Virus record (IMG/VR): IMGVR_UViG_3300031857_000007
DNA: 64,000 nucleotides
Reading direction: 5' to 3' (one strand)
From: a virus
Lineage: Duplodnaviria > Caudoviricetes
The translations under genes were made by a program, and so were the position numbers. Below, piece by piece: positions 76-19,161 of the stretch (its first letter is position 1; every line of letters starts with the position of its first letter). The notes under the pieces were generated by a model that saw only the letters and a list, made by a program, of their open reading frames with translations, ran no database searches and was not told where the DNA came from.

Positions 76-100
76 GGTGGACAGTACTGATTCTGTCCTA

Positions 101-173
101 TGCTCCTTGCGTGGATCGAACACGCCTCAGGCGAATTATGAGTTCGCTGCATTCACCAGATTGCTAAAGGAGC
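101..173 (-). tRNA. trnI(CAU): tRNA with CAU anticodon, probably Ile2 (lysidine type); Met not excluded
   Basis: GCTCCTT/AAGGAGC acceptor, GCGAA-CTCATAA-TTCGC anticodon arm, GCGTG-TTCGATC-CACGC T arm; CTCATAA loop resembles Ile2 tRNAs. Confidence 0.8.
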
Positions 174-176
174 AAG

Positions 177-248
177 TAGGACTGGAGAGAATTGAACTCT
201 CTTCACACCGTTATAAGCAGTGGGCCTTAACCAATAGGCGACAGTCCC
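177..248 (-). tRNA. trnI(UAU): tRNA-Ile(UAU)
   Basis: GGGACTG/CAGTCCT acceptor, CACTG-CTTATAA-CGGTG anticodon arm, TTCAATT T loop. Confidence 0.85.
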
Positions 249-287
249 TTGAAACCAGATCTATAGTAGCGGATCTGGAACGATTCG

Positions 288-518
288 TCAAGACCCTTCT
301 TCATGGTCTGTGTGGAGACGTATCAGTTCATCATCCACAGTTGATTCTATTGCGTACTTTATGGTTTCGTTGTAAGGAACTATCACTGCACTATTGCTCC
401 CATCTCGGATAATAAATGATTCGCCATTTTCAACTCTATTCATTAGATTTTCAAAATCTAATTGAAATTCTTCGACTGTAAATGATTGAAGTTCGTTTAG
501 TTCTTGATACATTTTCAT
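288..518 (-). CDS. Phd/YefM-like (antitoxin-fold) small acidic protein
   Basis: FTVEEFQLDFENLMNRVENGESFIIRDGSNSAVIVP fits the Phd/YefM pattern; start trimmed because the longer ORF overlaps tRNA-Pro. Confidence 0.65.
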   Translation of the reverse strand: MKMYQELNELQSFTVEEFQLDFENLMNRVENGESFIIRDGSNSAVIVPYNETIKYAIESTVDDELIRLHTDHEEGS

Positions 519-535
519 AAAGTAATTTTTATGAG

Positions 536-609
536 TCGGAATGATAGGATTCGAACCTACGGCCACTCGCTCCCAAAGCGAGTGCTCTACCAAACTGAGC
601 TACATTCCG
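536..609 (-). tRNA. trnP(UGG): tRNA-Pro(UGG) copy 1
   Basis: CGGAATG/CATTCCG acceptor, CTCGC-TTTGGGA-GCGAG anticodon arm. Confidence 0.92.
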
Positions 610-726
610 TTATTTGTTTCTATGTATAAACATAATACCAGCAAAAGGAACGACTGTCAACCCCATTCCACATAGAAAAAGAAAAAATGGGTTTGAAGCA
701 AGTGATTCTACAACATGAAAAATCAT
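610..726 (-). CDS. 38-aa hydrophobic protein (MIFHVVESLASNPFFLFLCGMGLTVVPFAGIMFIHRNK)
   Basis: Translated by hand; ATGA overlap with upstream stop; one TM-like stretch. Confidence 0.55.
   Translation of the reverse strand: MIFHVVESLASNPFFLFLCGMGLTVVPFAGIMFIHRNK
632..660 (-). promoter_or_regulatory. sigma70-type promoter TTGACA-N17-TATTAT ahead of tRNA-Pro
   Basis: ttgaca gtcgttccttttgctgg tattat. Confidence 0.7.
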
Positions 727-923
727 CTTCCCCTCCAGTTCTTGTACTCATAATACAAGTATTGATCAACTTCGTCAAGTCCCGATAAAGGAGCATTCAC
801 TTCCCAATTAGACCACTCAATGCAAAATTGTCTAATGTCATGATTATGTATAATCCCATGCCCATACATTCGTACAAAAGCAGACATTGCAAAGTTATAC
901 CTTTGTTTATTGTGGATATGCAT
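723..923 (-). CDS. hypothetical protein
   Basis: 66-aa ORF in a tightly coupled run of ORFs. Confidence 0.6.
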   Translation of the reverse strand: MHIHNKQRYNFAMSAFVRMYGHGIIHNHDIRQFCIEWSNWEVNAPLSGLDEVDQYLYYEYKNWRGR

Positions 924-999
924 TATGAAGTCCCCAATTAATAAAAATTGTTATGAGACTAAAAATAAAAACTGCATTGAAAATTGCTGTAGTACTCAT
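907..999 (-). CDS. 30-aa hydrophobic protein (MSTTAIFNAVFIFSLITIFINWGLHNAYPQ)
   Basis: Hand translation; TAATG coupling to upstream stop. Confidence 0.5.
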   Translation of the reverse strand: MSTTAIFNAVFIFSLITIFINWGLHNAYPQ

Positions 1000-1121
1000 T
1001 ACATTCCCCCGTTTCTAAAACCTACAATGTAACCAATAATTAATCCACACATGAAAGCGACAAACAAATAAAGAATATGAGACACAAACTCAATAAATAT
1101 AATCCAATCTGTCGTCGTCAT
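999..1121 (-). CDS. 40-aa hydrophobic protein (MTTTDWIIFIEFVSHILYLFVAFMCGLIIGYIVGFRNGGM)
   Basis: Hand translation; fills gap; TM-like. Confidence 0.5.
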   Translation of the reverse strand: MTTTDWIIFIEFVSHILYLFVAFMCGLIIGYIVGFRNGGM

Positions 1122-1404
1122 CGTCGTCGTCCTCATAAGTAGATGGTTCCTCGAAGAGTTCATTCATTTTTTGTTGCAAAACTCTTTGCTGTAGTTCTTG
1201 AAAATCTTCGTCCGTAAACTTAATCACAAGTAAAGGATCTCCTACTTTAACGTTGTTTAATTCTGGGTGTTTTACTTTAGGACTTTTTGAGTATCCATAA
1301 TGAGCATTCATAATCATCCATCCCTGAACAACCATAGATAAAGCAATCACAACAAGAACAAACCACGGTACTAAAAATATTATTGGAGAGTAATGTTGAG
1401 CCAT
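1090..1404 (-). CDS. membrane-anchored hypothetical protein with acidic C-terminus
   Basis: N-terminal hydrophobic helix, poly-Asp tail. Confidence 0.65.
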   Translation of the reverse strand: MAQHYSPIIFLVPWFVLVVIALSMVVQGWMIMNAHYGYSKSPKVKHPELNNVKVGDPLLVIKFTDEDFQELQQRVLQQKMNELFEEPSTYEDDDDDDDRLDYIY

Positions 1405-1583
1405 GGAAATACTGGCGGAATTACTCCAATGAGTCGAAGAAGACCTTCAGCAAAAAGAGCAAGAACAACCCAACCAACACACATTGAAATAATCGAAGCA
1501 TTACGATTGTGTCTTCGTATGGCATCATCAATCATCTCCTGCACTTCAGTTCTTGTAATAAATTCCTCTTGTTCATGCATCAT
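1380..1583 (-). CDS. small membrane hypothetical protein
   Basis: 67 aa with C-terminal hydrophobic segment. Confidence 0.65.
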   Translation of the reverse strand: MMHEQEEFITRTEVQEMIDDAIRRHNRNASIISMCVGWVVLALFAEGLLRLIGVIPPVFPWLNITLQ

Positions 1584-1729
1584 TTCTCGTCTCCAAAAAA
1601 TTTGGCGAGAGGATCTCTTCTAGTTTTAACAATTTCAACTGCTCTTTTGTAGAACATATTATCGGTGTTACCAGAAGTTTCAAAGGTTTCTTTGATCTTC
1701 ACCCAATTATTATAGGTGTGCTGATCCAT
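1580..1729 (-). CDS. 49-aa hypothetical protein (MDQHTYNNWVKIKETFETSGNTDNMFYKRAVEIVKTRRDPLAKFFGDEK)
   Basis: Hand translation; ATGA overlap with next ORF. Confidence 0.6.
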   Translation of the reverse strand: MDQHTYNNWVKIKETFETSGNTDNMFYKRAVEIVKTRRDPLAKFFGDEK

Positions 1730-1841
1730 AGGTTTATCCCGTGATACTAATATATACTAATCACAGGAATTTCAACGTCAACGAATTGTGTTCAATACGT
1801 AACACTCATTAAGCAATTATTAAATTTGTAACTTATCTAAA

Positions 1842-1926
1842 CGGAAAGGGTGGGATTCGAACCCACGGAAGCTTTCACTTCGCCAGTTTTCAAGACTGGA
1901 GCCTTCAACCACTCGACCACCTTTCC
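1842..1926 (-). tRNA. trnS(UGA): tRNA-Ser(UGA)
   Basis: CCAGT-CTTGAAA-ACTGG anticodon arm, long variable arm, G73. Confidence 0.92.
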
Positions 1927-1938
1927 AATATTAAGTCC

Positions 1939-2190
1939 TTAACGGACTTCAAAATCAAGTCGTCTTACTTTACGTTGACGACGTGCTTCTTGCCAAGCAA
2001 TATCTTGAGAAGACAGCACATTCTTTTGTTGATTTTCTTTTAAAGAGTTTAACATAACAATTCTAGATAAGTCAAGTGCTGAAATCTTATCCCCACGAAT
2101 AGTTGCCATATTAGGACAACCGCAAGTCACTGTTTTTGATTGCTGTCCTGTCAATTCTCTATTACAATCTTTACATCTTATTGAAATCAT
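1939..2190 (-). CDS. small Cys-containing hypothetical protein (CxxC...CxC, possible Zn ribbon)
   Basis: RCKDC...TCGCPN motifs. Confidence 0.7.
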   Translation of the reverse strand: MISIRCKDCNRELTGQQSKTVTCGCPNMATIRGDKISALDLSRIVMLNSLKENQQKNVLSSQDIAWQEARRQRKVRRLDFEVR

Positions 2191-2205
2191 TGTTCTTCAT
2201 CCTTA

Positions 2206-2640
2206 TCACTGTAAATGTGATCTTAGCATCCATACAAACTTGCCATGAGATTCCATTAAGTCTTGAACCAGATTAGCAGTTGCATATTGCTTTTGTGTTT
2301 CTGATTCTTCAGAAATCTCTGCCATTAATTCACAAAACTTGGTGTTATTATCAAGAAGTTCTTGAAGCATTTCTTTCGCTCCAGTTGAACTTGCTGCTTC
2401 TTTAATCTGAGTTACCTCAAGCATTCTTGAAAGAGAACTCAATGGTTTTACATTTAAGTATCTCATATGTTCTGAGAGACGATCAATCTCTTCAAACATA
2501 GTTTCATACTGACCACCAAAGAGTTGATGAAGTTGAGTAAAGTCTTCTCCAACTACATTCCAGTGAAATGCCCAAGTTTTGTGAAACAAAACAAAAAGTG
2601 ATGACTGAGCATCACTTAAGAGTTTAAACAGTTTTTCCAT
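2206..2640 (-). CDS. dps: Dps / ferritin-like DNA protection protein
   Basis: HWNVVGEDFTQLHQLFGGQY...IDRLSEH ferroxidase-type motif; start trimmed to MEKLF because the longer ORF runs into tRNA-Val. Confidence 0.88.
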   Translation of the reverse strand: MEKLFKLLSDAQSSLFVLFHKTWAFHWNVVGEDFTQLHQLFGGQYETMFEEIDRLSEHMRYLNVKPLSSLSRMLEVTQIKEAASSTGAKEMLQELLDNNTKFCELMAEISEESETQKQYATANLVQDLMESHGKFVWMLRSHLQ

Positions 2641-2668
2641 TATACTCTTTTTGTATTTATTTATCAAG

Positions 2669-2740
2669 TGGGAAATATCGGATTCGAACCAATGACTTAC
2701 TGCTTGTAAGGCAGCCACTCTACCGCTGAGTTAATCTCCC
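2669..2740 (-). tRNA. trnV(UAC): tRNA-Val(UAC)
   Basis: CTGC-CTTACAA-GCAG anticodon arm, GGGAGAT/ATTTCCC acceptor. Confidence 0.9.
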
Positions 2741-2743
2741 GTG

Positions 2744-2815
2744 TCCTCTGTCTAGGAATCGAACCTAGTTTCCAAGTGCGTTGTCCGCCTGTCCTTACCA
2801 ATAGACTACCAGAGG
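2744..2815 (-). ncRNA. 72-nt tRNA-like element with intact D/T arms and a non-pairing anticodon arm
   Basis: CCTCTG/CAGAGG acceptor, GTCT-ATTGGTA-AGGAC D arm, CTAGG-TTCGATT-CCTAG T arm; anticodon region GGCGGACAACGCACTTG cannot form a canonical 5-bp stem with U33. Confidence 0.6.
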
Positions 2816-3125
2816 TTGTGGTAGGTGTTGAGGACTTTACCTATGTCCCCACTCTTGACATTCACCCAAGCACCAGCAATAAGCATAGACCTGAGGAGAG
2901 GTTTTGGCACCTACGGAACGGTGATGAGTGCCCATCACCAGCGGAAGACACTTTCCGCAATTTTCACTGCATTAGAGGGCAGTGAATAAGAGGTTTCCAG
3001 TAGCCGTTCTTATCTCCCATAAGGAAGATGTAGGTATCGAACCTACAAAGGACAGTCCCTAACGGAACTGCTGGGAATTCCACTCAGAACCAATATGAAA
3101 GAATCGGACATTTCCAATCCTTTCA
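2816..3125 (-). ncRNA. candidate ~300-nt structured RNA containing a permuted tRNA-like module
   Basis: At least six hairpins plus T arm GTAGG-TTCGATA-CCTAC stacked on ATCTTCC-TTAT-GGGAGAT; no credible ORF. Confidence 0.55.
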
Positions 3126-3126
3126 A

Positions 3127-3198
3127 CTCCCCCACCTCGATTCGAACGAGGAACCTTAGAGTTAACAGCTCTCTGCTCTGCCGTTGAGCTATAGGGGA
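3127..3198 (-). tRNA. trnN(GUU): tRNA-Asn(GUU)
   Basis: CTGTTAA loop, TCCCCTA/TGGGGGA acceptor, G73. Confidence 0.9.
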
Positions 3199-3218
3199 AT
3201 AAGAACCCGAAGGTTCAG

Positions 3219-3290
3219 AGCGGAGTATCGGAATCGAACCGACGACATCTAACTTGGAAGGATAGCGTTCTACCGCTGAACTAACTCCGC
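3219..3290 (-). tRNA. trnG(UCC): tRNA-Gly(UCC)
   Basis: CTTCCAA loop, GCGGAGT/ACTCCGC acceptor, U73. Confidence 0.92.
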
Positions 3291-3300
3291 TTATAAGACA

Positions 3301-3329
3301 ATCATAAACTATTTTAGTTTGATTGTCAA
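3301..3329 (-). promoter_or_regulatory. sigma70-type promoter TTGACA-N17-TATGAT inside an inverted repeat
   Basis: ttgaca atcaaactaaaatagtt tatgat. Confidence 0.7.
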
Positions 3330-3330
3330 G

Positions 3331-3412
3331 TGTCGATGAAAGGACTTGAACCTTCACAGATTAATCTACTGGAACCTAAACCCAGCGCGTCTACCAATTC
3401 CGCCACATCGAC
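3331..3412 (-). tRNA. trnL(UAG): tRNA-Leu(UAG)
   Basis: CTGGG-TTTAGGT-TCCAG anticodon arm, long variable arm. Confidence 0.9.
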
Positions 3413-3476
3413 TTGATGGAGTAAGCGTAATATACCTCATAAGGATATAACAGAGGCTTACCCTCTATCACTTTAT

Positions 3477-3505
3477 ATAGTAACAGACTCATAAGAATCT
3501 GTCAA
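3477..3505 (-). promoter_or_regulatory. sigma70-type promoter TTGACA-N17-TACTAT inside an inverted repeat
   Basis: ttgaca gattcttatgagtctgt tactat. Confidence 0.7.
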
Positions 3506-3506
3506 G

Positions 3507-3580
3507 CGTCCTTTGAGAGATTCGAACTCCCGACACATAGGTTCGTAGCCTACTGCTCTTTTCCACTGAGCTAAAAGGAC
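3507..3580 (-). tRNA. trnR(ACG): tRNA-Arg(ACG)
   Basis: GTAGG-CTACGAA-CCTAT anticodon arm. Confidence 0.9.
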
Positions 3581-3584
3581 AAGG

Positions 3585-3655
3585 CGAAGGATGAGGGATT
3601 TGAACCCCCACTAATGGTTTTGGAGACCATCGTGCTACCATTACACCAATCCAAC
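3585..3655 (-). tRNA. trnW(CCA): tRNA-Trp(CCA) with two U-U mismatches in the acceptor stem
   Basis: ATGGT-CTCCAAA-ACCAT anticodon arm; acceptor GTTGGAT/ATCCTTC. Confidence 0.75.
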
Positions 3656-3729
3656 TGGCTGAGAAACTAGGACTCGAACCTAGATAAACTCCTTCAAAGG
3701 GAGGTGTCCTACCATTAGACGATTTCTCA
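3656..3729 (-). tRNA. trnQ(UUG): tRNA-Gln(UUG), the only one with encoded CCA
   Basis: CTTTGAA loop, U1-A72 TGAGAAA/TTTCTCA acceptor, G73 CCA. Confidence 0.9.
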
Positions 3730-3801
3730 AGCCCAATGTCAGACTCGAACTGACGACCTACTCATTACTAGTGAGTTGCTCTACCACTGAGCTAATCGGG
3801 C
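3730..3801 (-). tRNA. trnT(AGU): tRNA-Thr(AGU), A34 anticodon
   Basis: ACTCA-CTAGTAA-TGAGT anticodon arm, GCCCGAT/ATTGGGC acceptor. Confidence 0.85.
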
Positions 3802-3803
3802 GG

Positions 3804-3874
3804 GGTGACGTATGGGAATTGAACCCATCTAGGTGGTTCCACAAACCACTGCCTTACCACTAGGCTAACGTCAC
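3804..3874 (-). tRNA. trnH(GUG): tRNA-His(GUG)
   Basis: GTGGT-TTGTGGA-ACCAC anticodon arm, C73; G-1 not encoded. Confidence 0.9.
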
Positions 3875-3875
3875 A

Positions 3876-3947
3876 AGGCAGTGGGTAGAATTGAACTACC
3901 GACATAGAGGGTATGAATCTCTTGTTCTACCACTGAACTACACTGCC
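3876..3947 (-). tRNA. trnM(CAU): tRNA-Met(CAU), elongator-like
   Basis: TTCATAC loop, paired G1-C72, no GGG/CCC initiator stem. Confidence 0.8.
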
Positions 3948-3951
3948 AAAG

Positions 3952-4033
3952 TGGACGCTGACCTGCTGGTTACTCTTTCTGAAGAGGGAGGCGTCAGTCT
4001 TTTATATCCTAGCAAGCACCTTGCTGGAGTCCA
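3952..4033 (-). ncRNA. candidate 82-nt three-way-junction RNA between tRNA-Ser(GGA) and tRNA-Met
   Basis: TGGAC/GTCCA closing stem, AGCAAG-GTG-CTTGCT hairpin, CTGAC/GTCAG stem with CTCTT-CAGA-AAGAG tip. Confidence 0.5.
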
Positions 4034-4034
4034 A

Positions 4035-4119
4035 CGGAGAGTAGAGGATTCGAACCTCTGGTGCTGTTACACACAAGACCTTTCCAAGATCTCACCATAA
4101 ACCACTCGGACAACTCTCC
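4035..4119 (-). tRNA. trnS(GGA): tRNA-Ser(GGA)
   Basis: TTGGAAA loop, long variable arm, G73. Confidence 0.9.
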
Positions 4120-4121
4120 AA

Positions 4122-4210
4122 CGGAAGTGGTTGGATTCGAACCAACGGATGCCTATAAAGACATCGGCGGTTTAGCAAACCGCTGCTTTAGACCTCTCAG
4201 CCACACTTCC
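4122..4210 (-). tRNA. trnS(GCU): tRNA-Ser(GCU)
   Basis: GCGGT-TTGCTAA-ACCGC anticodon arm, long variable arm. Confidence 0.92.
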
Positions 4211-4223
4211 ATATCGTAGGTTT

Positions 4224-4307
4224 ATTATTCAGAAGGATTTGAACCTTCATTGCCGTCTCCCAAAACGCAAGTGCTATGACGGAGTGTTACCGTTACACTA
4301 TGAACAA
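4224..4307 (-). ncRNA. tRNA-like element with a 20-nt anticodon loop and G3-U70
   Basis: TTGTTCA/TGAATAA acceptor, GTGT-AACGGT-AACAC D arm, CCGTC/GACGG anticodon stem around ATAGCACTTGCGTTTTGGGA, GAAGG-TTCAAAT-CCTTC T arm. Confidence 0.7.
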
Positions 4308-4309
4308 TA

Positions 4310-4521
4310 TCCTTACGTTGCTTACTCCTTAACTCTACTCATTGAATCTACTTGTTGGACCTAATCGTTGGAATACTCACTGCGTTCAACTTATTACCCT
4401 GCCTCGCCTTGAACGAGTCTGGTTTCTATAGCCTTTGCGTTTGTTAGTAATAAGCATACTGACAGGTTTCTTTTACCTTTCAGTTTTCCGTTCAACCCAA
4501 CTTTGGAATAAAGTTTGGGCA
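4310..4521 (-). ncRNA. candidate ~210-nt structured spacer RNA
   Basis: Several stems incl. CTTATTAC/GTAATAAG enclosing CTCG-TTCAAGG-CGAG; duplicated GTTGAACG. Confidence 0.4.
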
Positions 4522-4523
4522 AG

Positions 4524-4595
4524 TGGAACCGACAAGATTTGAACTTGTGACCGCTCGGTTATCAGCCGAGTGCTCTACCACTGAGCTACGATTCC
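4524..4595 (-). tRNA. trnI(GAU): tRNA-Ile(GAU)
   Basis: CTCGG-CTGATAA-CCGAG anticodon arm. Confidence 0.93.
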
Positions 4596-4599
4596 AGAG

Positions 4600-4673
4600 A
4601 GGGAACAATCGGATTTGAACCGATAACACCATGATCTTCAATCATGTGCTCTACCAATTGGAGCTATGTTCCC
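4600..4673 (-). tRNA. trnF(GAA): tRNA-Phe(GAA)
   Basis: CATGA-TTGAAGA-TCATG anticodon arm. Confidence 0.9.
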
Positions 4674-4677
4674 AAGG

Positions 4678-4751
4678 TCCAGATGGAGGGATTCGAACCC
4701 CCGACCCCCTGTTCCCAAAACAGGTGCGCTACCAAACTGCGCTACATCTGG
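4678..4751 (-). tRNA. trnP(UGG): tRNA-Pro(UGG) copy 2 (divergent from copy 1)
   Basis: CCTGT-TTTGGGA-ACAGG anticodon arm, CCAGATG/CATCTGG acceptor. Confidence 0.9.
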
Positions 4752-4754
4752 ATA

Positions 4755-4826
4755 TAGTCCTAACGGGATTTGAACCCGTGTCTTCACTGTGAAAGAGTGA
4801 TGTCCTCACCACTAGACGATAGGACC
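4755..4826 (-). tRNA. trnE(UUC): tRNA-Glu(UUC)
   Basis: TCACT-CTTTCAC-AGTGA anticodon arm. Confidence 0.92.
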
Positions 4827-4830
4827 AGAT

Positions 4831-5002
4831 GGGAGGGGTATCCCACACGAAGTTACTTACGGATTACGCTTCGTAGCCTTATGAATCCTGCCATCATCCG
4901 ATGGTGGTTAGAAATCCCTCCCCAATTCCAGTTATTACTACGACATTCTTCTGCAAACTGGCAACCTCTGAAGAATGCGTGGGAGTTAGAATACTGACTC
5001 CC
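4831..5002 (-). ncRNA. candidate ~170-nt RNA with two H-type pseudoknots between tRNA-Asp and tRNA-Glu
   Basis: CATTCTTC/GAAGAATG crossed by CCAGTT/AACTGG; GGATT/AATCC crossed by ACGAAG/CTTCGT inside GGGAGGG/CCCTCCC. Confidence 0.5.
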
Positions 5003-5004
5003 AA

Positions 5005-5078
5005 CGACCCATACGGGATTCGAACCCGTGATCTCCACCGTGACAGGGTGGCGTGATAAGCCGCTACACTAATGGGTC
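5005..5078 (-). tRNA. trnD(GUC): tRNA-Asp(GUC)
   Basis: CCACC-CTGTCAC-GGTGG anticodon arm. Confidence 0.92.
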
Positions 5079-5082
5079 AAGG

Positions 5083-5164
5083 TGGGAGGAGCAGGATTCG
5101 AACCTGCGAAGGCAGAGCCGTCTGATTTACAGTCAGATTCCTTTAACCACTCGGAAATCCTCCC
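5083..5164 (-). tRNA. trnY(GUA): tRNA-Tyr(GUA)
   Basis: TCTGA-CTGTAAA-TCAGA anticodon arm, long variable arm. Confidence 0.93.
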
Positions 5165-5168
5165 ACGA

Positions 5169-5241
5169 TGGGTCTGGTCGGGATCGAACCGACGACTTAC
5201 AGGTTAAAAGCCCGCTACTCTACCAACTGAGTTACAGACCC
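5169..5241 (-). tRNA. trnK(UUU): tRNA-Lys(UUU)
   Basis: CTTTTAA loop, GGGTCTG/CAGACCC acceptor. Confidence 0.92.
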
Positions 5242-5370
5242 AAATAATGTGGAAAATATTCAGTTGTCGATGTTCGGTGTGGTCTCTCTCGACCACTTGA
5301 TTAGAATACCACCGTTTGGTCTCTGGGGGGAGATTGGTGGACACTTAGGAAACCGTCACTGGTAACAAAC

Positions 5371-5404
5371 AAAAAAGGGGAGGAAACTTTTGGTTTCTCT
5401 CCCC
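5371..5404 (-). terminator. intrinsic terminator
   Basis: GGGGAGAGAAAC/GTTTCCTCCCC hairpin followed by T run. Confidence 0.7.
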
Positions 5405-5429
5405 TGTCTTTGCTTTTATGGATTACATC

Positions 5430-5531
5430 TTACATATGTCTTTCCATATCCGCAAACAGAGGAGTACCCTCAATATGCCAATAGCGCATATCAAGATTAC
5501 TAAACTGTTTGGTGGGCATTGGATAAGACAT
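5430..5531 (-). CDS. 33-aa hypothetical protein (MSYPMPTKQFSNLDMRYWHIEGTPLFADMERHM)
   Basis: Hand translation; bracketed by TATAAATA promoter and terminator. Confidence 0.55.
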   Translation of the reverse strand: MSYPMPTKQFSNLDMRYWHIEGTPLFADMERHM

Positions 5532-5552
5532 TGTTTTCGACCTAAGTGTGTT

Positions 5553-5583
5553 TATTTATAAGACTTTTTTGTTAAAAAGTCAA
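5553..5583 (-). promoter_or_regulatory. overlapping sigma70-type (TTGACT-N17-TATAAA) and T4 late (TATAAATA) promoter
   Basis: ttgact ttttaacaaaaaagtct tataaata. Confidence 0.7.
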
Positions 5584-5655
5584 CAGGCTCACCAGGAATC
5601 GAACCTGGGACAACCGCTTAGAAGGCGGTGGTTATATCCGCTTAACTATGAGCCC
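5584..5655 (-). tRNA. trnR(UCU): tRNA-Arg(UCU)
   Basis: ACCGC-CTTCTAA-GCGGT anticodon arm. Confidence 0.92.
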
Positions 5656-5661
5656 AAGAGG

Positions 5662-5732
5662 CCTCCCTGTTTGTGCATCGATGAGAGGCATGGGAGGGAC
5701 AGGACTTACACAGAGTTTGGACCCCTGTTGCC
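5662..5732 (-). ncRNA. candidate ~71-nt double-pseudoknot leader RNA
   Basis: GGCA/TGCC, ACAGG/CCTGT, CCTCCC/GGGAGG and TGTGTA/TGCACA pairings, the last two crossing. Confidence 0.5.
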
Positions 5733-7001: not shown

Positions 7002-7175
7002 TCAAGATTGCGGTTCTATGGAAATAATTTCCAATTCACTTTCATCCGGATCAATCCATTCGTAAAATTCTGCAAGAATAGCGCGAGCGTCATCTATAGA
7101 AACATTTTTATCTGCAGCACGATCAAGAGACCACTCCCGAACATGAGCCACAATATCTTCAGTCGTCGCGTTCAT
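7002..7175 (-). CDS. 57-aa hypothetical protein
   Basis: MNATTEDIVAHVREW...; start trimmed to avoid long overlap. Confidence 0.65.
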   Translation of the reverse strand: MNATTEDIVAHVREWSLDRAADKNVSIDDARAILAEFYEWIDPDESELEIISIEPQS

Positions 7176-7602
7176 AATAATCTTTTCGGAAGTATCTATT
7201 AAGTATGTTGGAATTGTAGTACCTCGGGGTTCCGTCGTCAAGTCCTTCTGTAAGGACATTGTTGAAGAAGAGTTGTCTTGTTTCTTCAAAGTTTGTTTTG
7301 CCCTTTGTTTTATGTAATGATAAAATAGTGCGCGTAAAATTCTCCCTACCATATTTTTCTATATCTTCTTTGAGTTCTGGACATGATCCGTAATATTTTT
7401 TCCAATCAGACTCTGATTTAACCTTTCTAGATTTTCCCTTCGGTGTGCGGAAACTCCAGAAATATTTTCTACCAATATAATCCCTACCAGTTTTAGTGCA
7501 ATGTATATGATATACAAAACCAAAATAATCCTGTATATCACTTGAACCAAATACTTTTCCATTGTAGGTCCAAGGATTTTCATAGTCAATATCTATACTC
7601 AT
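7159..7602 (-). CDS. GIY-YIG family endonuclease (EndoII/Seg-like)
   Basis: GFVY-x10-YIG, YYGS, and YN.N motifs. Confidence 0.8.
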   Translation of the reverse strand: MSIDIDYENPWTYNGKVFGSSDIQDYFGFVYHIHCTKTGRDYIGRKYFWSFRTPKGKSRKVKSESDWKKYYGSCPELKEDIEKYGRENFTRTILSLHKTKGKTNFEETRQLFFNNVLTEGLDDGTPRYYNSNILNRYFRKDYYERDD

Positions 7603-7741
7603 CAATAATATCAAGAACTTCGTTCAGATATTTATTAGCAAGTCCTTTGGCGTCCCAACTTGGTTGATCTTTATATAGTCTGTCTTTTAACTTTAATACA
7701 CGAACTTTTATTTCGTCTTTAGTTAGTTGATTTTTAGGCAT
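7586..7741 (-). CDS. 51-aa hypothetical protein (MPKNQLTKDEIKVRVLKLK...VLDIIDEYRY)
   Basis: Hand translation; fills gap. Confidence 0.6.
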   Translation of the reverse strand: MPKNQLTKDEIKVRVLKLKDRLYKDQPSWDAKGLANKYLNEVLDIIDEYRY

Positions 7742-19049: not shown

Positions 19050-19078
19050 TTATTATTACTTTTTCAAGTATTTAGAAA

Positions 19079-19151
19079 TGGAGAATAGGGGACTCGAACC
19101 CCTCACCCCCGCCGTGCAAAAGCGGTGCTCTACCAAATGAGCTAATTCCCC
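19079..19151 (-). tRNA. trnA(UGC): tRNA-Ala(UGC), solitary
   Basis: TTTGCAC loop, GGGGAAT/ATTCTCC acceptor with G3-U70, A73. Confidence 0.93.
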
Positions 19152-19161
19152 AAGTTCAGAT

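Follow-up and report, generated by a model that had tools for sequence, protein, structure and literature searches.

A tRNA-shaped RNA module with a long, leader-complementary loop in the tRNA arrays of T4-like cyanophages and jumbo phages

The stable RNAs C and D of phage T4 (species 1 and 2, encoded by rnaC and rnaD) are small non-tRNA RNAs located in the tRNA cluster, where they lie on the tRNA strand, abut tRNAs and are presumably freed by the tRNA-processing enzymes. In E. coli, the tRNA-operon spacer 3'ETS-leuZ acts as an RNA sponge, and an engineered "tRNA scaffold" displays RNA molecules in the anticodon arm. Here, we describe an RNA module that bears some resemblance to each of these systems. 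Like the T4 RNAs, with which only the context was compared, it is situated within a phage tRNA cluster, on the same strand and abutting tRNAs. Like 3'ETS-leuZ, it would derive from a tRNA transcript, and like the engineered scaffold, it would offer a stabilizing and processable tRNA body. To our knowledge, no description of RNAs C and D gives them a complete cloverleaf whose enlarged loop is paired to a leader.

A tRNA-shaped element is also present at the 3' side of the larger non-coding RNAs MALAT1-mascRNA, MEN-beta and the TMER RNAs of the gammaherpesviruses (PMC8457004, PMC4337559). They share with the module a tRNA-shaped 3' part and, as predicted for the module, ends that can be set by RNase P or RNase Z and pairing between leader and trailer. 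They differ in being eukaryotic or animal-virus systems with a reduced anticodon arm, and none is known to have a conserved long loop that is complementary to upstream RNA. In the way it would work, the module is most similar to the T4 RNAs and to these punctuation-type elements, and its architecture recalls tmRNA.

The window analyzed here, by which we mean the whole stretch of 64,000 nucleotides, comes from a virus of the Caudoviricetes (IMG/VR record IMGVR_UViG_3300031857_000007). Its NrdB protein is 84-86% identical to the NrdB proteins of T4-like Synechococcus myoviruses, and we therefore consider the phage to be a T4-like cyanophage. ARAGORN called a dense array of 25 tRNA genes on the minus strand at 100-5656 and a 26th gene, for tRNA-Ala, apart from it at 19078-19152 on the same strand. 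With default settings no call was made between the genes for tRNA-Ile(gat) at 4523-4595 and tRNA-Ser(gct) at 4121-4211. The module is located in this interval and, like the flanking tRNA-Ile gene, all of its parts are on the minus strand.

Both direct reading and the Rfam tRNA model (RF00005; 45.4 bits, gathering score 29, E-value 1e-8 on local search) confirmed the complete cloverleaf that had been noted in the original prediction, together with its 20-nt loop, G3-U70 pair and U discriminator. This tRNA-shaped domain of 84 nt covers positions 4224-4307. Its acceptor stem is built from a 5' strand at 4307-4301 and a 3' strand at 4231-4225, which form seven pairs including G3-U70, and the discriminator U is at 4224. 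The D arm (4298-4284) has a stem of 4 bp and a loop that contains GG, and the T arm (4248-4232) is canonical. The anticodon-type arm (4253-4282) has a 5-bp stem, formed by 4278-4282 with 4253-4257, which encloses a loop of 20 nt at 4258-4277, AUAGCACUUGCGUUUUGGGA, in the place of the anticodon loop. The Rfam model treats these 20 nt as an insert at the position of the 7-nt loop, and ARAGORN in intron mode reports a tRNA-Pro(tgg) with a 13-nt insert at 31/32. The tmRNA search of ARAGORN gave no call in the window or in the loci of the carriers described below.

Contigs from three DNA sequencing runs, which belong to three different studies, span positions 4124-4485 with zero differences; the long loop on which the original prediction was built is thus genuine and not an artefact of the assembly. 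A second strain, which is the more abundant one, carries differences at 17-27 positions in the leader and in the 5' half of the element. Both strains of the module (window positions 4260-4485, runs X2-X4) occur in the same freshwater metagenomes, where the contig depth of the strain with A3-U70 is about 1.6- to 3.7-fold above that of the window's strain with G3-U70. One contig of low depth from an RNA library (run X15) represents a variant and spans 4259-4544 with the loop uncut, which is weak evidence on transcription or splicing because DNA may be carried over into RNA libraries.

The domain is preceded by a leader of 215 nt (4308-4522), which separates it from tRNA-Ile(gat), and is followed by a trailer of 12 nt (4212-4223) with the sequence A-N-ACCUACGAUA. 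No Rfam family matched the leader at E<=10. In the 5' to 3' direction, the leader contains a partner segment, AAACGCAAAGGCUAU, at 4428-4442, which is complementary to loop positions 1-15, then an A-rich run (AAAAACC), a hairpin at 4401-4419 and, after it, the motif ACAGG. The leader accompanies the tRNA-shaped domain in every carrier.

Homologs of the module were not found in the arrays that are otherwise most similar to that of the window. When 80 syntenic IMG/VR loci, collected via the neighboring lysozyme gene, were searched by BLAST with the element and its leader, no match was obtained, and since the 80 most similar arrays have neither element nor leader we consider the arrays to be mosaic. 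Two exact-pattern scans, one for the stem with the loop and one for the T arm with the acceptor, were also without matches because the stems differ among relatives. A pattern derived from the leader identified 10 IMG/VR contigs, and the 18-mer of the loop retrieved more in IMG/VR and in metagenomes; 12 extra metagenome matches to the 18-mer look like chance. These carriers, here called clade A, have a tRNA-Ile(gat) gene as upstream neighbor in every case where the contig reaches that far, followed by a leader of about 215 nt, the element and the 12-nt trailer.

Searches with the invariant sequences placed the module on a 455-kb contig of a jumbo phage, L091 (also L093 and L117), which we refer to as clade B, and in a phage with tRNAs of the amber-suppressor type (L120, L122 and L124), which we refer to as clade C. 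In both, the partner and the loop are kept and the rest of the module is barely alignable. A gapped search of IMG/VR, in which the central 10 nt of the loop and of the partner were fixed at a spacing of 100-170 nt, added about ten more lineages on contigs of 25-490 kb, among them L134 on a contig of 33 kb. The carriers are T4-like cyanophages and several lineages of jumbo phages, and in all carriers examined the module is located within or beside dense tRNA arrays. One of them is the Agrobacterium phage Atu_ph07 (490,380 bp, MF403008.1; L161, G006), where the module, at about 331,037-331,205, corresponds to an unannotated gap between hypothetical genes that adjoins the tRNA region in the GenBank record. 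In the genome paper for this phage (PMC6102473), which lists 33 tRNAs predicted with tRNAscan-SE, neither tRNA-like nor non-coding RNAs are mentioned.

In four CheckV-complete genomes, a model of the leader core (R2) gave a single strong match each, and in the search for paralogs with this model the sole marginal extra match was to a coding sequence. Within the carrier loci, Rfam has no family other than tRNA over the module. A blastn search against the phage collection returned only fragments of tRNA-Ser, T arms and tRNA-Pro, with no T4 record over the leader or the loop, and the units of L143 and L138 had no match in the same collection. Neither Rfam 15 nor the full-text literature that was searched contains a description of the module, which is a well-defined and apparently undescribed RNA family with a single copy per genome.

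The structure of the tRNA-shaped domain is, as judged from the pattern of substitutions, under selection. All 21 cloverleaf pairs are 100% paired in the 10 distinct variants of clade A, and nine of these pairs have changed on both sides, compared to 0-3 pairs in a control where the 3' partners were slid by 1-3 columns. Changes on both sides of the acceptor stem were seen in clade A at 2:71, 6:67 and 7:66, the D arm of L104 has been swapped to a GCUC/GAGC type, and a pair in the anticodon-type stem has changed from U-A to C-G in clade A. The fourth pair of the latter stem is U-A, C-G or G-C depending on the lineage. Such compensatory substitutions in all four stems exclude a decaying gene, which had been one of four explanations offered in the original prediction. 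The hairpin of the leader is likewise maintained, with four core pairs that are 100% paired in 13 variants and 17 cells in which both sides have changed; its loop has the consensus GGAAGRG in most other lineages and reads UUCAAGG in the window.

The loop is 18-24 nt long in every homolog found. A comparison of loop lengths had been suggested at the outset, and it turned out that the long loop is kept and that ordinary 7-nt loops do not occur among the homologs. Positions 1-18 are identical in about 19 carriers of clade A and in the 455-kb jumbo phage, the module of which can hardly be aligned to clade A elsewhere. In clade A only the last one or two nucleotides vary (GA, AG, A or G), giving loops of 19 or 20 nt. 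The loop core GCAYUUGCGU (4265-4274) is invariant across all lineages found, although the pattern of the gapped search itself prescribed the central 10 nt of loop and partner for the lineages that it returned. The 3' portion of the loop, in which the UGG lies, varies among homologs.

The acceptor stem is less uniform. It is full in eight variants and irregular or absent in six of 14 lineages or variants (seven sequences). Of the eight with a full stem, four have G-U at 3:70 (the window, L136, L138 and L139), three have A-U (the types that make up most of clade A, represented by L081 and L104, and L133) and one has G-C (L132). Within clade A, the G-U pair is peculiar to the strain of the window. 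The discriminator is U or G, and A73 was never observed. Scores with the Rfam tRNA model range from 32 to 48 bits for the relatives L132, L136, L138 and L143; L120 has a partial match of 14.9 bits and L091 has none. What all lineages have in common is a D/T elbow, a 5-bp stem that closes a long loop, and complementarity between the loop and the leader. This leads us to interpret the cloverleaf as a scaffold that also serves as a handle for processing, and to see the functional core in the helix between loop and leader.

The partner segment is located about 150 nt upstream of the loop and is as invariant as the loop itself. Loop positions 1-15 and AAACGCAAAGGCUAU match at 13 of 15 positions by Watson-Crick pairing, with A.G and C.A mismatches in the middle of the duplex, and in most lineages (including L120, L122 and L124) a C to U change at loop position 7 adds a pair. 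The same degree of complementarity to the leader was attained by three of 3000 shuffled loops. For the duplex energy, 40-78 of 2000 controls were equal or better, which corresponds to a p-value of about 0.02-0.04 and is a weak statistic. None of the approximately 560 other distinct tRNA predictions in the collected loci exceeded 11 of 15 matches to the partner.

Further support comes from the ends of the helix. The pair between loop position 3 and partner position 13 (l3/p13) is A-U everywhere except in L132, where both sides have changed to give U-A, and l14/p2 is U-A, with A-U in L136 and G.U in L132. Both pairs, which lie outside the fixed cores of the search, are unbroken in 15 of 15 variants. 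The central 10 nt on either side of the helix are without variation, and in the lineages from the gapped search they were preset by the pattern; the covariation support is therefore confined to the ends, where it consists of two double substitutions plus two changes on one side only. For the two outermost loop positions, no consistent pairing with the leader was seen. RNAalifold picks the leader-loop helix in an alignment of the three clades, and partition functions place the helix and the anticodon stem close to each other in energy, with the favored state differing between members.

Our preferred explanation, to which we assign a probability of roughly two in three, is that the element is a non-decoding, tRNA-scaffolded domain of a composite phage RNA that is clamped or switched by pairing between leader and loop. 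According to this hypothesis, positions 4212-4522 would represent one composite non-coding RNA module of about 300 nt that is co-transcribed with the tRNA array. The 3' domain would be a scaffold in the shape of a tRNA, comprising a D/T elbow, a 5-bp anticodon-type stem and, in the lineage of the window, a full acceptor, and it would display a non-decoding loop of 18-24 nt in place of the anticodon loop. About 13 nt of this loop would pair with the module's own leader, forming 3 bp, a conserved A.G mismatch and another 8-10 bp. We infer that this pairing occurs in vivo, that it acts as a clamp or switch, and that the module is processed. In the lineages with an acceptor, RNase P, cutting at the 5' end of the cloverleaf, and the 3' processing enzymes would excise the module like a tRNA, after which the duplex could keep the leader and the tRNA-shaped piece together as a two-piece particle.

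The geometry of the proposed helix deserves consideration. Only 2-4 loop nucleotides are to spare on the 5' side of the paired stretch and 3-8 on the 3' side, and it would thus be hard to hold the full duplex and the closed 5-bp stem together. The duplex and the stem are therefore probably alternative states, as in a switch, or else they coexist in a strained, non-coaxial T-shaped pseudoknot that acts as a clamp. It can be argued against the helix that 13 bp in a loop closed by a stem of 5 bp is sterically awkward, and simple pairing does not explain why the A.G mismatch is conserved. Of the four explanations in the original prediction, the non-decoding mimic comes nearest to ours: the element is a real tRNA-shaped RNA under selection and, in its present form, is unable to decode.

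A rather improbable alternative is a trans-acting antisense RNA built on a tRNA scaffold. The loop, with a YUNR-type CUUG/UUUG turn followed by GCGUUU, would then seed the pairing with a host or phage RNA similar to the leader partner, and the copy in the leader would serve as a decoy, sponge or chaperone. An invariant 10-18-mer that can be single-stranded on a stable scaffold would suit such a role, the leader would be a near-perfect mimic of the target, and hosts as different as cyanobacteria and Agrobacterium would fit a target that is very conserved. The arrangement is indeed similar to antisense RNAs with recognition loops, which also have a conserved loop on a stable stem and a linear partner, but the module differs from antisense and sponge systems in having both partners on one transcript. 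Moreover, additional partner-like sites were found in the 64-kb window only at the level of a reversed-pattern control, and none above that control in two complete carrier genomes.

The exact 18-mer of the loop or its complement gave no more than eight scattered matches in 185,579 species genomes, none of them cyanobacterial, which is the level expected by chance. One of the eight is a contig in a Gammaproteobacteria MAG that is identical to the jumbo phage of clade B, and the others are chance-like. The contig from the MAG bin, L117 (JALOAT010000054.1), is identical to L091 over the tRNA array and the module, and is thus likely to be phage DNA in the bin.

We also regard it as unlikely that the module is a decoy or sponge for a protein that recognizes the shape of tRNAs, with the long loop as bait or block. 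Candidate proteins would be an anticodon nuclease or another tRNA-targeting defense system, a modification enzyme, RNase P or the CCA-adding enzyme. The conservation of the D/T elbow and the anticodon-type stem in all lineages speaks for this idea, as does the location of the module in the tRNA arrays of phages that invest heavily in tRNAs. A nuclease decoy had also been among the explanations in the original prediction. It leaves the invariant leader partner, the covarying flanks of the helix and the leader hairpin unexplained, however, and no associated protein gene was identified.

About equally doubtful is a further elaboration of the two-piece particle, in which the module, after cleavage by RNase P, would be a tmRNA-like or T-box-like RNP that engages the machinery for translation or tRNA maturation in the infected cell, with the G3-U70 versions perhaps being alanylated. 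The module has in common with tmRNAs, among them the permuted two-piece forms of cyanobacteria and alpha-proteobacteria, that a larger structured RNA is attached to a tRNA-like domain on the side to which the anticodon arm would point; the copy in the window has G3-U70, and a base-paired two-piece particle is conceivable after processing. Unlike tmRNAs, the module has a full D arm and an anticodon stem, G3-U70 is not conserved, A73 is absent, the gene order is unpermuted, and there is no conserved tag frame, since by inspection the frames differ between clades. If true, this would amount to a novel class of RNA machine, encoded by phages and mimicking tRNA, that is common to phages of cyanobacteria and alpha-proteobacteria.

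Very unlikely is the explanation that had been placed first in the original prediction, an intron-bearing or healable tRNA from which 11-17 nt are removed to give tRNA-Ala(AGC), or a tRNA for Pro or Gln as named by ARAGORN. The module resembles the intron-containing tRNAs of archaea and eukaryotes (with bulge-helix-bulge introns at 37/38) and the cyanobacterial tRNA-Leu and tRNA-fMet genes with group I introns in having extra nucleotides in the anticodon loop. The sequence U33-AGC-A37 is present at the 5' side of the loop in clades A-C, L132 has U-U-UGC-A-U, which is also of the Ala type, and four of the eight acceptor-bearing variants have G3-U70. But unlike in the known intron-bearing tRNAs, the extra nucleotides are invariant and complementary to the leader. 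The supposed intron carries the invariant core while the stems vary, which is the reverse of the expectation for an intron, and the would-be junctions and the residual loop differ between members. Because of these differences, ARAGORN in intron mode names members of the family as tRNAs for Pro, Gln, Ala, Trp, Ile or Thr.

Folds of the arm contain no bulge-helix-bulge (3-4-3) and only weak pairings of 2-3 bp inside the loop. A group I intron, as a ribozyme of about 200 nt or more with P1-P9, is far larger than the insert of 11-17 nt (13 nt in the window), and there was no Rfam match to group I introns at E<=10. Among the phage genomes, the CheckV-complete clade-A genome G001 is without a splicing endonuclease (EndA, PF01974), RtcB, Rnl1 and Rnl2, and the jumbo-phage genome G002 has RNA ligases and no splicing endonuclease. 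The uncut loop in the RNA-library contig of run X15 also argues, weakly, against removal of the insert. In five lineages, U33 is replaced by A, G or C, and a proper acceptor stem is missing from six lineages or variants.

The two alternative anticodons of the original prediction can both be derived as stated, by reading the loop as either A-U-AGC-A-A or U-U-UGG-G-A. The UGG is situated in the variable 3' part of the loop and is not supported as an anticodon. The AGC is conserved, but as bases that are paired with the leader: they are complementary to a GCU in the leader, and the UGC variant in L132 is accompanied by a compensating change there. The alanine identity fares no better, since 3:70 is A-U in the nearest relatives of the window, A-U or G-C in all four acceptor-bearing variants other than those with G-U, and the discriminator is never A73. 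The family as a whole thus lacks the marks of a decoding tRNA, having no 7-nt loop, no shared anticodon and no consistent acceptor or discriminator, and those of a substrate for AlaRS. With the acceptor absent or irregular in six of 14 cases and both 3:70 and the discriminator variable, the common function of the family cannot lie in aminoacylation. Both the U-NGC-A motif and the G3-U70 pair, which recurs, may have been retained from an ancestral tRNA-Ala gene.

That the element is a decaying tRNA pseudogene, was inserted recently or arose by misassembly can practically be dismissed, because the missing default ARAGORN call and the absence of the element from the 80 closest arrays found via the neighboring protein are outweighed by identical sequences in three independent data sets, compensatory changes in four stems and conservation across T4-like cyanophages and jumbo-phage lineages.

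Several other interpretations of individual features were considered and rejected. The 26 ordinary tRNAs of the window cover all amino acids but Cys, and the U73 and the GCA of the loop could be taken to indicate the missing tRNA-Cys. This is contradicted by L092, where the element occurs alongside a normal tRNA-Cys(gca), and by the location of the Cys gene in relatives: in L054, L074 and L092 tRNA-Cys(gca) is found between the genes for Thr and Gln, where the window has no gap. Conservation among members is lacking for a hammerhead-like CUGAUGA in the leader, for a mini-ORF with Shine-Dalgarno and AUG that starts in the variable loop, for a reading of the leader hairpin as a T-loop, for a tmRNA-type tag frame from the GCA in the partner and for an external-guide ACCA after the partner. 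An origin of the insert by tandem duplication of 13 nt is matched at only about 8 of 14 positions.

The non-tRNA contents of the tRNA arrays in large phages have mostly been ignored, and the composite module with its proposed clamped or switched loop is one such element, of which Rfam 15 covers only the tRNA-shaped part. It spans T4-like cyanophages and jumbo phages that infect at least one other host phylum. We hypothesize that a tRNA body has been reused as the scaffold for an invariant RNA-RNA pairing element, which is a concrete structural hypothesis, and since the carrier Atu_ph07 is cultured on A. tumefaciens C58, the module is open to ordinary experiments. Annotators should be aware that tRNA finders in intron mode will label the module as a different intron-bearing tRNA in each phage. 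As for its spread, the trailer of clade A is conserved irrespective of whether the next tRNA is for Ser, Met or another amino acid, and the mobile unit therefore appears to consist of tRNA-Ile, leader, element and trailer. In single-sequence folds of clade A, the trailer is predicted to pair with the last bases of the leader (CGUAAGG).

The arrays contain other features besides ordinary tRNA genes. An Rfam abiF RNA motif (RF03085; 48 bits, gathering score 37) is present in the window at 5661-5697 on the minus strand, directly 5' of the tRNA-Arg(tct) gene at the head of the tRNA array. A GIY-YIG homing endonuclease ORF of the SegE type (PF19835, E-value 7e-54) is located at 7159-7614 on the minus strand, between the tRNA array and nrdB, and an ORF for a ferritin-like protein at 2206-2718 is placed inside the array. 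The gene predicted to encode tRNA-Leu(caa), at 2743-2815 on the minus strand, scores only 32 bits with the Rfam model, and a similar gene in L029, L033, L035 and L036 has an anticodon loop of 8 nt and is reported by ARAGORN as tRNA-???(gaca); this could be a further tRNA of non-standard type in the arrays. For two related contigs of cyanophages (L048, 3866-4144, and L050, 11017-11295), ARAGORN in intron mode predicts a tRNA-Arg(tct) with an intervening sequence of 202 nt at position 38, which could be a group I intron. Finally, the phage of clade C has tRNAs with a CUA anticodon, labeled "Pyl" by ARAGORN, at 435-508 and 12366-12441 in L120 and at 2680-2755 in L124, which suggests amber suppression or recoding.
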